A stretch of DNA of 64,000 nucleotides from Rickettsiales bacterium. GTDB lineage: Bacteria; Pseudomonadota; Alphaproteobacteria; Rickettsiales; UBA998. Shown here piece by piece: positions 43,127 to 45,590 of the stretch. The translations under genes were made by a program, and so were the position numbers. How positions within the stretch are numbered: the stretch's first letter is position 1; every line of letters starts with the position of its first letter. The DNA lies in the NCBI GenBank assembly GCA_965248995.1, contig CBDFKY010000006.1:101729-165728 (forward strand). The letters are read 5' to 3'. The notes under the pieces were generated by a model that made no database searches, was not told where the DNA came from, and was given only the letters and a program-made list of their open reading frames with translations.

Positions 43127-43203
43127 TCCTACGCCCTGCGGGCTTCGGATGGTTCGCCGCCGCGATGGCGAAGCCATACGGAACCGCATCTTGGGCGTAG
43201 GAT
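43126..43203. repeat. long imperfect hairpin immediately 3' of tRNA-Pro
   Basis: Perfect 11-bp outer arms ATCCTACGCCC/GGGCGTAGGAT (43126-43136 / 43193-43203). Inner pairs TGCGG/CCGCA and GGCTTCG/CGAAGCC. Confidence 0.6.
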
Positions 43204-43239
43204 GCGCTACGAAGCCGGAGCGTAGCGGAGGAGGGCTTT

Positions 43240-43470
43240 GTGTATTACGTCTATCTTATAAAGAGCCTCAGCCACCCCGATCAAAAATACATCGGGATTA
43301 CAGAGGATTTGAAGAAACGCTATGTCGACCACAACAAGGGCTTCTCCAAACATACCGCAAAATATACGCCTTGGGAAATCGTGACCTATCACGCCTTCAA
43401 AGATAAATACAAAGCATATGAATTTGAAACTTATCTCAAAACAGGGGGATTATATACTTTGCAGGACTAA
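43240..43470 (+). CDS. GIY-YIG nuclease family protein, C-terminus replaced by IS insertion
   Basis: GTG start. YYVYLIKSLSHPDQKYIGITEDLKKRYVDHNKG...PWEIV is a GIY-YIG core. From 43445 the frame runs into the IS inverted repeat. Confidence 0.75.
   Translation: MYYVYLIKSLSHPDQKYIGITEDLKKRYVDHNKGFSKHTAKYTPWEIVTYHAFKDKYKAYEFETYLKTGGLYTLQD
43437..43444. repeat. 8-bp target-site duplication CAAAACAG (left)
   Basis: Identical to 45524-45531, directly outside the inverted repeats. Confidence 0.8.
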
Positions 43471-43479
43471 GCGCAACAT

Positions 43480-43656
43480 CTAGTTTTCGCTTGATTCCGT
43501 TTTTTCTTCTGGCAGGTCTTCTGGCTTAACCGTCATCAGCTTTTTCATTTTCTCATCGAATGCCTCCAGCGACTCATTGCACTCTAATTCACGGGCTGTT
43601 TCGATAAAACGTTGAGATTGCAAGGTATCAAGCGGAAACTTCTTCTTTGATGTCAT
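43480..43656 (-). CDS. small acidic hypothetical protein (IS passenger)
   Basis: 58 aa from the internal ATG (MTSKKKFPLDTLQSQRFIETARELE...). Start uncertain. Confidence 0.4.
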   Translation of the reverse strand: MTSKKKFPLDTLQSQRFIETARELECNESLEAFDEKMKKLMTVKPEDLPEEKTESSEN

Positions 43657-43936
43657 GGAGAACAGCCTCTTCATCCATTGTGATGCGGATGCTATGCAGA
43701 TACACTGTAGAATCATCGTAACTATAAAGAACGACAATATCTGGTAAATCCGCTAATCCCTTTTTCTTATAAAGATAAAAGTTACCATGTCCTTTAAATA
43801 ACGGATGGGCGAGCTTATCAGCAGAGCGGCTTAATAGCCATTTTAGCCCCTCCCAATCTTCGTCTAACCTATCAATTGAGGAATAAGAATCAATGGTATC
43901 GCTAACAGCTTTTTCTTCTACAATTTGTCTTAGCAT
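43628..43936 (-). CDS. RelE/ParE-fold-like putative toxin (IS passenger)
   Basis: About 102 aa from the ATG at 43936 (7-nt overlap with the upstream stop). The C-terminal pattern GNFYLYKKKG...DIVVLYSYDDSTVYLHSIRI resembles RelE/ParE beta-strands. Confidence 0.55.
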   Translation of the reverse strand: MLRQIVEEKAVSDTIDSYSSIDRLDEDWEGLKWLLSRSADKLAHPLFKGHGNFYLYKKKGLADLPDIVVLYSYDDSTVYLHSIRITMDEEAVLHDIKEEVSA

Positions 43937-44511
43937 GCCTTTGCTAGCTCCAACCCCAAATGATTTACCTGATTTTTTGCCCACGTCATGTCGTCACCAG
44001 ATAACTCGCCCTGCCTGCTTGCAAAAATTGCACATAATGGGATTTCCTCGCCTATTTCCGCCGCTTCCCATATTATATCGTGCGTATGCTCGCTAATTGA
44101 AGAAGCAGTATGGGAATGGCATATACTCTCCATTACATCATCAACCAAACTGATTTCATCGCTTGTGAAACCCGATATATTAGGAGAACGCAAAGATATA
44201 AAATGCGTTTGTGGGTAGCCGCCATAAATAGCGGTTCTCTCAAAAATCAGTCCACTTCTTTTCAGGGATTTTCTGACACTCATTATATCCTTAGGAACTG
44301 GACCAAATTGTCTTTTTTCATACTTTGCCCCACTGATAGATTGCCCTTTATAGAGATAACTTAGTGCATCGGAAAACCAAAGCACTTTATTCAGCTTGGT
44401 CGCTCCCAACTTTACAGGGTCGTCGCATTTAGAAACAATGTAGTGGGTTAGATTGTGAAACTTGTCCATTTTATTACCTTCATAGGCAGTTGAATGGTTT
44501 GATGAGTACAT
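43930..44511 (-). CDS. Panacea/DUF4065 (SocA-like) antitoxin-domain protein (IS passenger)
   Basis: GATKLNKVLWFSDALSYLYKGQSISGAKYEKRQFGPVPKD matches the DUF4065 core as I recall it. Start at 44511, or alternatively 44469. Confidence 0.7.
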   Translation of the reverse strand: MYSSNHSTAYEGNKMDKFHNLTHYIVSKCDDPVKLGATKLNKVLWFSDALSYLYKGQSISGAKYEKRQFGPVPKDIMSVRKSLKRSGLIFERTAIYGGYPQTHFISLRSPNISGFTSDEISLVDDVMESICHSHTASSISEHTHDIIWEAAEIGEEIPLCAIFASRQGELSGDDMTWAKNQVNHLGLELAKAC

Positions 44512-44536
44512 GACAATTCTCCACTTTGCTAGCAAA

Positions 44537-45457
44537 TCAGCAATTATGTGTTTTATATACTAATCTTTTTCCTAAAATTCCAATTAGCATCTCACGCGAA
44601 CGCTCACTATCAGTAAGGTGTCTCTCATTATAGCGGAAGTCAAACTCTGCAAGGTAGCGTTTCAGGTGACGACTGTTGCAATGCTGATAGATTCCCTTCA
44701 TGCCACGTTTGAAAACGCTGAAATATCCCTCAATGGTGTTTGTATGTGCATCACCGCGCACATACTCACCAATTCCATGATTGACGCTATGGTGTTCCGC
44801 AAAGGCTTTGCCAAGAGGTTTGTATTGACGTGCTTCATCCGTCATGAGGATGCTGTCAGTATGCAGTTGCTCCATAAGAATAGGGCGCAGGTTTTCAGCG
44901 GTGACATGTGTTACATGCTGGCTGCGGACTTTCCCGCCGCGCTCCACAAGGGAAAACACGATTTCCTTATTTGCTCCACCTTGGGAATGTGGAATATGCT
45001 TGTTCTTATGCTTATTCTTCTCCAATCCACCAAAGTACGTCTCATCCGCTTCAACAGTTTTGCCCTCACCACCCATAGGCTCAATGTTCAATACACGCAT
45101 TGCCTCACGCAAGCGGTGAGTCATGAACCATGCCGTCTTATAGGTTACGCCTAGCGTGCGGTGCAACTGGTGGGAACTGATGCCCTTTTTACTGGAAGCC
45201 ATAAGGTATGCAGCTTGTAGCCATAAATGCAGCTTCACATGAGAGGATTCAAACACCGTACCGACTTTGACGGTGAACTTTTTATTGCAGTCAGAGCATT
45301 TACGAAGTCCAGGACGGTCGCCCTTGCCGTTCAGCGCATACATTTTACCAAGGCTCCCACAATGAGGGCAGGAAACGCCATTAGCCCATACGATGCTTTC
45401 TAAGTACGCGATGGCGACAGTTTCATCATGAAAACGGGGAGCGGACAAAATAGACAT
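44537..45457 (-). CDS. IS1595 family transposase (ISXO2-like)
   Basis: 306 aa. N-terminal zinc ribbon CPHCGS...CSDCNKKFTVKVGTVFESSHV, an HTH (ISSHQLHRTLGVTYKTAWFMTHRLR), and a DDE core with VEADETYFGG. Confidence 0.92.
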   Translation of the reverse strand: MSILSAPRFHDETVAIAYLESIVWANGVSCPHCGSLGKMYALNGKGDRPGLRKCSDCNKKFTVKVGTVFESSHVKLHLWLQAAYLMASSKKGISSHQLHRTLGVTYKTAWFMTHRLREAMRVLNIEPMGGEGKTVEADETYFGGLEKNKHKNKHIPHSQGGANKEIVFSLVERGGKVRSQHVTHVTAENLRPILMEQLHTDSILMTDEARQYKPLGKAFAEHHSVNHGIGEYVRGDAHTNTIEGYFSVFKRGMKGIYQHCNSRHLKRYLAEFDFRYNERHLTDSERSREMLIGILGKRLVYKTHNC

Positions 45458-45523
45458 AACAACATTCCTTGGTTATAAGGAAATACTATATTATGTGGCT
45501 TGTCCCGTCAAGTATATAATCCC

Positions 45524-45531
45524 CCAAAACA
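45524..45531. repeat. 8-bp target-site duplication CAAAACAG (right)
   Basis: Identical to 43437-43444. Confidence 0.8.
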
Positions 45532-45569
45532 GGGTCCGGAAAAGCGTTTGCCAGCAAACGTTTTTGGTA
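45532..45569 (+). pseudogene. displaced 3' end of the GIY-YIG gene
   Basis: Joined to 43444 it reads ...YLKTGSGKAFASKRFW*, a typical GIY-YIG small-protein C-terminus. Confidence 0.75.
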
Positions 45570-45590
45570 ACAAAAAAATCTAGTATCACT

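Follow-up and report, generated by a model that had tools for sequence, protein, structure and literature searches.

Panacea-domain toxin–antitoxin (TA) pairs, known as PanAT, were described by Kurata et al. (2022, PNAS, PMC8832971), who demonstrated direct complexes between PanA and PanT. In these systems the GPV motif is the Panacea domain's signature, and neutralization depends critically on it; the listed partners include ParE (CDD) and RelE/HigB/YoeB-like proteins (T14; T28, 89% HHpred), and transposases are often adjacent to the loci (PMC8832971). TA pairs are also carried by Tn3-family transposons (Lima-Mendez et al. 2020, mBio, as cited in PMC8832971). Insertion sequences (IS) with passenger genes, called transporter IS by ISfinder/TnCentral, are so far restricted to the families IS1595 and IS66 (TnCentral; 10.1101/2021.05.26.445724). 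Here we analyse an IS1595-family element in a 64 000-nucleotide stretch (the window) of contig CBDFKY010000006.1 from a Rickettsiales bacterium. Behind its transposase gene (tnp), the element carries a Panacea-domain gene (panA) followed by two small open reading frames (ORFs), ORF2 and ORF3. The pair panA–ORF2 is probably a TA-like cassette of the PanAT kind, and ORF3 appears to belong to the IS lineage.

The locus shares with PanAT the Panacea domain with its GPV motif, an antitoxin-first bicistron, the overlap of stop and start codons, a small partner of predicted RelE/ParE fold and the proximity of a transposase. It differs in the partner, which comes from an acidic family with no Pfam or NCBIfam model and without the known catalytic residues. 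Like other IS1595 transporter IS, the element has one DDE transposase with a zinc ribbon, short terminal inverted repeats, an 8-bp target duplication and passenger genes inside. Unlike them, its sub-lineage has a conserved small distal gene, ORF3, and a variable slot between tnp and ORF3 that appears to have held TA-like two-gene cassettes repeatedly. Going by the cited account, the Tn3-family pairs are likewise type II TA-like pairs that are integral passengers and presumably stabilize the element. They differ in transposon family and transposition chemistry; in the window, the cassette lies behind the transposase, equally oriented and inside an IS of 2 kb, with a Panacea protein as the antitoxin.

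The pairing of Panacea with a RelE/ParE-like protein, the carriage of TA pairs by transposable elements and the class of IS1595 transporter IS are all already published. The original prediction, made from the sequence alone, had suggested that the arrangement might not be a described pair; this was overstated, as ParE and RelE/HigB/YoeB-like Panacea partners had been listed. To our knowledge, the literature that was searched contains no description of the ORF2 family, of ORF3 as a hallmark gene or of a variable slot for TA cassettes.

An intact transporter insertion sequence

The element occupies positions 43445–45524 of the window (2080 bp) and contains four close-packed or overlapping genes on the minus strand, in the order tnp, panA, ORF2 and ORF3. 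The GC content of the insert (43437–45532) is 43.4 per cent, compared with 55.4 per cent for the window. A search for inverted repeats in the window found two arms, at 43444–43492 and 45477–45525, and the outermost 16 nt of both terminal inverted repeats are identical (GGGGGATTATATACTT). An 8-bp target duplication, the size usual for IS1595-family elements, borders the element. The element interrupts a gene of the GIY-YIG nuclease family: in silico deletion of 43445–45532 rejoins it into an 80-codon ORF with the end YLKTGSGKAFASKRFW. An intact 80-amino-acid (aa) orthologue with the end YLKTGSGKAFANKRFW is found in a related genome of the same family (G002; L171 256–498) and represents the equivalent of the empty site. 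The inverted repeats, the duplication and the restorable GIY-YIG ORF bear out the original claim that the genes are IS passengers.

The transposase matches the ISXO2-like DDE domain (PF12762) and the IS1595 zinc ribbon (PF12760). Together with the repeats and three passenger ORFs, it makes the element fit the definition of a transporter IS; it probably falls within one of the IS1595 subgroups with passenger genes. The perfect 16-nt terminal repeats and the identical target duplication point to a recent insertion. The window thus holds a transporter IS of the IS1595 family whose structure is intact and whose insertion is recent. When the DNA of the whole IS was compared with plasmids, only pieces of the transposase matched (69–76% identity). 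A promoter in the inverted repeat on the transposase side probably drives the four genes as one tnp–panA–ORF2–ORF3 transcript, as suggested by the spacing of the genes and a weak consensus match; no terminator-like sites were seen between them.

The IS is present in one copy in this genome, and a sample of 150 other genomes of the order gave no member of the ORF2 family. Both observations would suit an inert relic, in which the genes have stayed intact by chance within a dead single-copy IS. We regard this as improbable: all four ORFs are full length and keep their family-conserved residues, the ends of the element bear the marks of a recent insertion, and ORF3 is under purifying selection relative to a close relative (see below).

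PanA and its partner ORF2

The protein PanA matches the Pfam profile SocA_Panacea (PF13274) over profile positions 1–112 of 113 (E = 6.1e-13; 50.1 bits against a cut-off of 25.7), and its original assignment to Panacea/DUF4065 is secure. It contains the stretch TKLNKVLWFSD...RQFGPVP. The GPV motif lies in RQFGPVP (residues 67–73), with G70 and P71 invariant and V72 nearly so among 25 members of the subfamily. There are 303 PanA relatives in the database (44–64% identity), all annotated with PF13274. The second ATG (44469) marks where most homologues begin, and the actual length of PanA may thus be 179 aa. The ATG of ORF2 is at 43936 and the panA stop codon TAA at 43932–43930; the shared ATGCTAA constitutes a 7-nt overlap, exactly as first described, and this start is backed by homologues beginning MLRQII.... 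The three passenger genes lie on the minus strand where they had been placed, and the PanA relatives, the 84 representatives of the ORF2 family and the pattern of substitutions in ORF3 identify them as real ORFs.

No significant match to ORF2 was found in Pfam, NCBIfam, PADLOC or PHROGs, and none by tblastn in plasmids and phages. The matches to HP0268, P4Ha_N and ExsD from library scans with ORF2 and ORF3 are weak and below cut-off. Sequence searches of the PDB with ORF2 alone or with the family profile gave asparaginase, beta-lactamase and OT3, which were dismissed as chance-level matches. A word-based search gave a single relative of ORF2 and a single relative of ORF3. This lone ORF2 relative, on soil metagenome contigs, follows a Panacea gene at a distance of 2 nt and lies beside a type I restriction S subunit. 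An exhaustive phmmer search was needed to gather the ORF2 family, which comprises 84 representatives of 83–119 aa with the motif R-T-I-V-E-E ... RF..AWEGLKWLLAR.PE.G ... LY ... P.I.VLY.FDD..V.I..I.

The structure of ORF2 was modelled by AlphaFold2 with an alignment of 83 sequences (predicted local distance difference test, pLDDT, 91.6; predicted template modelling score, pTM, 0.77). A single-sequence model was poor (pLDDT 57) and was not used. The model has the topology b1-a1-a2-b2-b3-b4-a3, with strands (b) at residues 4–7, 54–58, 66–73 and 77–86 and helices (a) at 9–17, 24–38 and 89–101. In a Foldseek search of the PDB, the top 38 or so matches are all toxins of the RelE/ParE superfamily, including ParE2, RelE, HigB2, YafQ, YoeB, PfiT, ParE and the RelE-like domain of Cami1. 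Their Foldseek probabilities are mostly 0.98–1.00 (weakest 0.63) and the target-normalized template modelling (TM) score reaches 0.76. The predicted fold and the order of its elements correspond to those of ParE2 from the Escherichia coli O157:H7 system PaaR2–PaaA2–ParE2 (PDB 5cw7/5czf) and of RelE toxins such as RelE1 of Mycobacterium tuberculosis (PDB 9g12). The b3-turn-b4 signature (hydrophobic-Y-x-x-D-D-x-x-V-x-I) is in register with both; sequence identity is 7–20 per cent, with no significant profile match. On the basis of the model, ORF2 is predicted to have the RelE/ParE fold, in which an N-terminal strand and a hairpin of two helices come before an antiparallel sheet of three strands. 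Its partner is a Panacea protein and not PaaA2, ParD or RelB.

The ORF2 family is acidic (median isoelectric point, pI, 5.1; 92% of members below pI 7; net charge −8 for the protein in the window), in contrast to the basic RelE/ParE toxins. The only conserved residues are R3, E7, D16, R23, W33, L35, R37, P65, Y71 and D74. The polar ones among them (R3, E7, D16, R23, R37 and D74) sit in the N-terminal strand, in helices or in the b3–b4 turn; no K, R, H or Y is conserved in or after b4 across the family, and the C-terminal tails, the segment on which gyrase inhibition by ParE-type toxins depends, are not conserved. RelE, YoeB and YafQ have catalytic Arg, His and Tyr residues after the last strand. 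As the ORF2 family has no conserved residues there, a ribosome-dependent RNase activity is unlikely. If toxic, ORF2 might rather be ParE-like and non-nucleolytic, binding gyrase for example, or act on another target; such an acidic partner could have a target other than the ribosome and gyrase.

Three toxin clusters of Kurata et al. that share taxa with the loci of the pair (T6, T8 and T46) were considered as the ORF2 family and rejected, being MazF-like in the accessible part of that source. The ORF2 family could correspond to T28 or to another of the clusters.

Distribution of the pair with and without the insertion sequence

The survey of the pair covered 80 genome loci that carry genes for relatives of this PanA subfamily; they belong to Nitrospirota, Alpha- and Gammaproteobacteria, Acidobacteriota, Cyanobacteriota, Spirochaetota and others. 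In 63 of these, panA is immediately followed by an ORF2-family gene, with a spacing of about −50 to +35 nt, and several of the remaining loci have small downstream ORFs of similar pattern that were missed by the ORF2 profile. Among the IS-borne copies, the pairwise identities of PanA and ORF2 co-vary (Spearman rho 0.71).

About 46 of the 63 pairs have no transposase. About 40 of these non-IS pairs lie in varied neighbourhoods (phage integrases, terminases, TrwC relaxases, other transposases and housekeeping genes), as expected of a mobile selfish cassette. A defence-island context was not seen as a general feature of these 40 or so loci. There is one instance of a context of this type: the nearest non-IS homologue of the pair (L002 3–980) directly follows the gene of a type I restriction–modification specificity subunit (Methylase_S, PF01420). 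At another locus (L053 3944–4810), PanA and an ORF2-family protein are read as one ORF of 288 aa, in which the ORF2 part has no first strand. The fusion may be real, or an artefact of assembly or of a frameshift in a metagenome-assembled genome.

In 17 of the 80 loci, the gene immediately upstream, on the same strand, encodes an IS1595 transposase that is 34–57 per cent identical to that of the window. The suggested survey of IS1595 relatives thus shows at least 17 related IS loci with this cargo. Thirteen of these elements (2.1–4.3 kb) are delimited by terminal inverted repeats of the same type, with the consensus about GGCGATTATATACTTGACAAACC, and the element of the window is the smallest. 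The two closest relatives of PanA in the database (64 and 60% identity) are also IS-borne; one of the two loci, L168, has the full order tnp–panA–ORF2–ORF3 and the other, L167, has the same left end.

In the PanA tree, the IS-borne copies are scattered among the non-IS ones, with 13 label changes, at least four of which are forced by well-supported branches. Transposase similarity is a poor predictor of cassette similarity (rho 0.34 for PanA and 0.15 for ORF2). We therefore reject, as the sole history, one ancient event in which the IS captured the cassette. Either the cassette was acquired or swapped on more than one occasion, or loss of transposases has been frequent; in both cases, cassette and IS have not simply co-diverged. 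Judged by its occurrence in these genomes, PanA–ORF2 appears to be an autonomous, horizontally moving two-gene cassette, found with and without the IS, and with the order and coupling of type II TA pairs.

Putative function of the cassette

We consider it probable that the cargo of the IS is a two-gene type II TA-like cassette of the PanAT kind. By analogy with the described systems, PanA, which has no DNA-binding N-terminal domain, would most likely bind the ORF2 product and neutralize it directly. General TA biology suggests that a cassette of this type on an IS would penalize the loss or silencing of the element or of its replicon; it might also add abortive infection or phage defence.

Several points weigh against this reading. 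For the ORF2 family, the predicted fold, the pairing and the coupling come from sequence and modelling, and toxicity, neutralization and binding are putative. The Foldseek E-values are modest (best 1.6e-3), with TM scores of 0.5–0.65 for most matches. The ParE_toxin profile (PF05016) matches two of 83 family members, below cut-off, and the same hidden Markov model finds two other genes in this genome and not ORF2. An hhalign comparison of the ORF2 family with 20 PF05016 members from related genomes gave P = 0.0017 and a probability of 16 per cent. Eight predicted PanTs were non-toxic in E. coli (PMC8832971), and an acidic protein of RelE/ParE fold without known catalytic or C-terminal ParE motifs may be no toxin. 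The single copy of the IS leaves recent activity in this genome unproven, and the proposed single transcript and promoter are suggested only by gene spacing and a consensus scan whose number of sites is not above chance.

The original description of ORF2 as RelE/ParE-like is thus sustained by the AlphaFold2 model and Foldseek and finds no backing in the profile searches (Pfam, NCBIfam, PADLOC, PHROGs, PF05016 and hhalign). The hhalign register is the expected one, with the P..G loop of helix 2 and the Y...DD..V.I hairpin aligned. ORF2 as a member of the curated ParE_toxin family (PF05016) was rejected, the profile links being marginal.

These results also bear on the alternative that the pair is not a TA system: ORF2 would be a non-toxic derivative of the RelE/ParE fold, and its complex with PanA would do another job, for example phage sensing or regulation of the transposase. 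The acidity of the family, the missing catalytic residues of RelE, YoeB and HigB, the missing C-terminal motif of ParE and the lack of any profile tying ORF2 to known toxins all agree with it, as do the single fused ORF of L053 and the position of panA and ORF2 in one string with tnp. Regulation of transposition, however, cannot be the general role of pairs of which about 46 in 63 have no transposase. The pairs match type II TA systems in gene order, size, tight coupling and scattered, mobile distribution, and the Panacea proteins tested so far are antitoxins (PMC8832971). We hold this alternative to be rather unlikely, and keep the TA-like cassette as the preferred explanation.

ORF3 and the variable cargo slot

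ORF3 is acidic, as first noted (pI 4.78), and shares 29 nt with ORF2. In the source annotation its start lies six codons earlier (64 aa, P0206). No significant match was found in Pfam, NCBIfam, PADLOC or PHROGs, and there is one weak match only in plasmids. The conserved part of the protein is a helical core, RF..(A/T)AREL.C.E...E.F...L..(I/V)...KP; the C-terminal tail is acidic in the window, whereas the tails of most homologues are basic and proline-rich.

A close copy of ORF3 is found in another metagenome (L169, 90% DNA identity). The two copies differ by 10 synonymous and three non-synonymous changes over 47 codons. In this ENA metagenome contig of 539 bp, ORF3 and the IS end (positions 1–290) are 90 per cent identical to the window. 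The likeness begins only after the first 25 nt or so of ORF3; the start of the ORF and the preceding 71 nt are unrelated, AT-rich DNA. The flank past the inverted repeat is also different, which makes L169 a close IS relative with a different cargo at a different site.

With the ORF3 profile, homologues following ORF2 were found in IS-borne loci only (six full and two partial), and none was found beside the 46 or so non-IS PanA–ORF2 pairs. A metagenome search with the core motif of ORF3 (ARELGCDE...) gave at least 230 relatives, of which 80 loci were examined. ORF3 is present in 77 of them, and at least 35 have a same-strand IS1595 transposase upstream, many contigs being too short to tell. 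Three of the 80 loci encode PanA and none an ORF2-family protein. Apart from a cassette with a PIN-domain protein in four elements (see below), the other cargoes between tnp and ORF3 are unknown proteins, or 460–930 nt without a convincing ORF.

Four ORF3-bearing elements (L126 2149–3487, L129 968–2417, L134 2610–4002 and L148 1272–2649, all metagenome loci) carry an unknown protein of 270–295 aa and then an overlapping PIN-domain protein (PF01850). This looks, from its sequence, like another TA-like cassette in the same slot. Two further IS1595 relatives have only about 500 nt between tnp and ORF3. In these, ORF3 is preceded by an ORF of 70–77 aa with the pattern V.LRV.V.P.L..YL..L... (L095 1570–1803 and L096 1669–1881), which could be a small ribbon-helix-helix-like regulator.

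Since ORF3 is kept in IS1595 relatives with unrelated cargo or none that is clear, it belongs to the IS lineage. The comparison of loci indicates that ORF3 is the conserved transposase-distal gene of an IS1595 sub-lineage, and that the cargo slot separates it from tnp. That ORF3 assists or regulates transposition is a guess. Tentatively, and with some doubt, the sub-lineage might be a cassette carrier of the form inverted repeat–tnp–variable slot–ORF3–inverted repeat, in which the slot repeatedly takes or exchanges TA-like modules. ORF3 would then be an undescribed accessory or regulatory protein of transposition, and the IS lineage a vehicle dedicated to carrying TA or defence cassettes from phylum to phylum.

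The same distribution bears on the three-component arrangement put forward in the original prediction, which it does not support. In a true three-component system, ORF3 would be a second antitoxin, a chaperone or a transcriptional regulator, as in PaaR–PaaA–ParE or TAC. ORF3 does overlap ORF2, it is small and helical with an acidic core like PaaA2-type antitoxins, and the best Foldseek match of ORF2 is ParE2 of the PaaA2–ParE2 complex; a separate regulator would also make sense beside a PanA without DNA-binding domain. That ORF3 was not found beside any of the 46 or so non-IS pairs runs counter to such a system, as do its metagenome loci, with their PIN, other or no clear cargo in many IS1595 elements, and the L169 copy, in which ORF3 and the IS end are retained next to a different upstream sequence. 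The distribution appears to refute this explanation largely, and we judge it highly unlikely.

Insertion site and features of the locus

The coordinates of the features are given in table 1. The interrupted GIY-YIG gene is UPF0213-like, and its orthologue in G002 is equally placed after a tRNA-like stretch. A tRNA-Pro upstream of the gene is the sole Rfam match in the region. The structured spacer between the two (43140–43231) recurs in the same genome (G000), with copies at C14:295525–295618 (80% identity), C22:91207–91243 (97%) and C2:152900–152945 (87%). It is therefore a small dispersed repeat and not a unique att-like remnant.

Table 1. Features of the IS1595-family element and its insertion site (window positions; a dot indicates no strand).
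Feature	Position	Strand	Basis and remarks
GIY-YIG nuclease-family gene, 5' part, split by the IS	43240..43444	+	PF01541, 51.6 bits; last 16 codons resume at 45533-45583
Target-site duplication CAAAACAG, copy by the cargo end of the IS	43437..43444	.	identical 8-mer at 45525-45532
Terminal inverted repeat GGGGATTATATACTTTGCAGGAC, transposase-distal end	43445..43467	.	inverted-repeat search; same end in L167 and L169
ORF3, 58 aa (64 aa if started at 43674), small helical protein	43480..43656	-	core RFIETARELxCxESxEAFDEKMKKL...KP
ORF2, 102 aa, putative PanT partner, predicted RelE/ParE fold, acidic	43628..43936	-	AlphaFold2 and Foldseek; family of 84 representatives
panA, Panacea-domain antitoxin-type gene, 193 aa	43930..44511	-	PF13274; phrog_1281; without N-terminal helix-turn-helix
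IS1595-family DDE transposase, 306 aa, N-terminal zinc ribbon	44537..45457	-	PF12762, 135.5 bits; PF12760, 44.6 bits; NF033547, 202 bits, full length
Promoter-like site TTGACG-17-TAGTAT, partly inside the transposase-proximal inverted repeat	45483..45511	-	consensus scan; site number not above chance
Terminal inverted repeat, transposase end	45502..45524	.	inverted-repeat search
Target-site duplication CAAAACAG, second copy	45525..45532	.	identical 8-mer

Implications

For the annotation of this genome, the locus represents a recent horizontal insertion that inactivates a GIY-YIG gene beside tRNA-Pro. Many unrelated toxins are known as partners of Panacea antitoxins, and the locus is a concrete case of such a putative pair inside a delimited IS. 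PanA and its partner of predicted RelE/ParE fold form a widespread family that is not yet covered by profile libraries. If ORF2 is toxic, it would add a divergent acidic branch to the RelE/ParE superfamily, with its target open. One IS lineage appears to carry different TA-like cassettes in the same slot, and the constant companion of its transposase is not the cassette but a small conserved gene, ORF3. A role of ORF3 in transposition, if it has one, would make it a new IS accessory factor.

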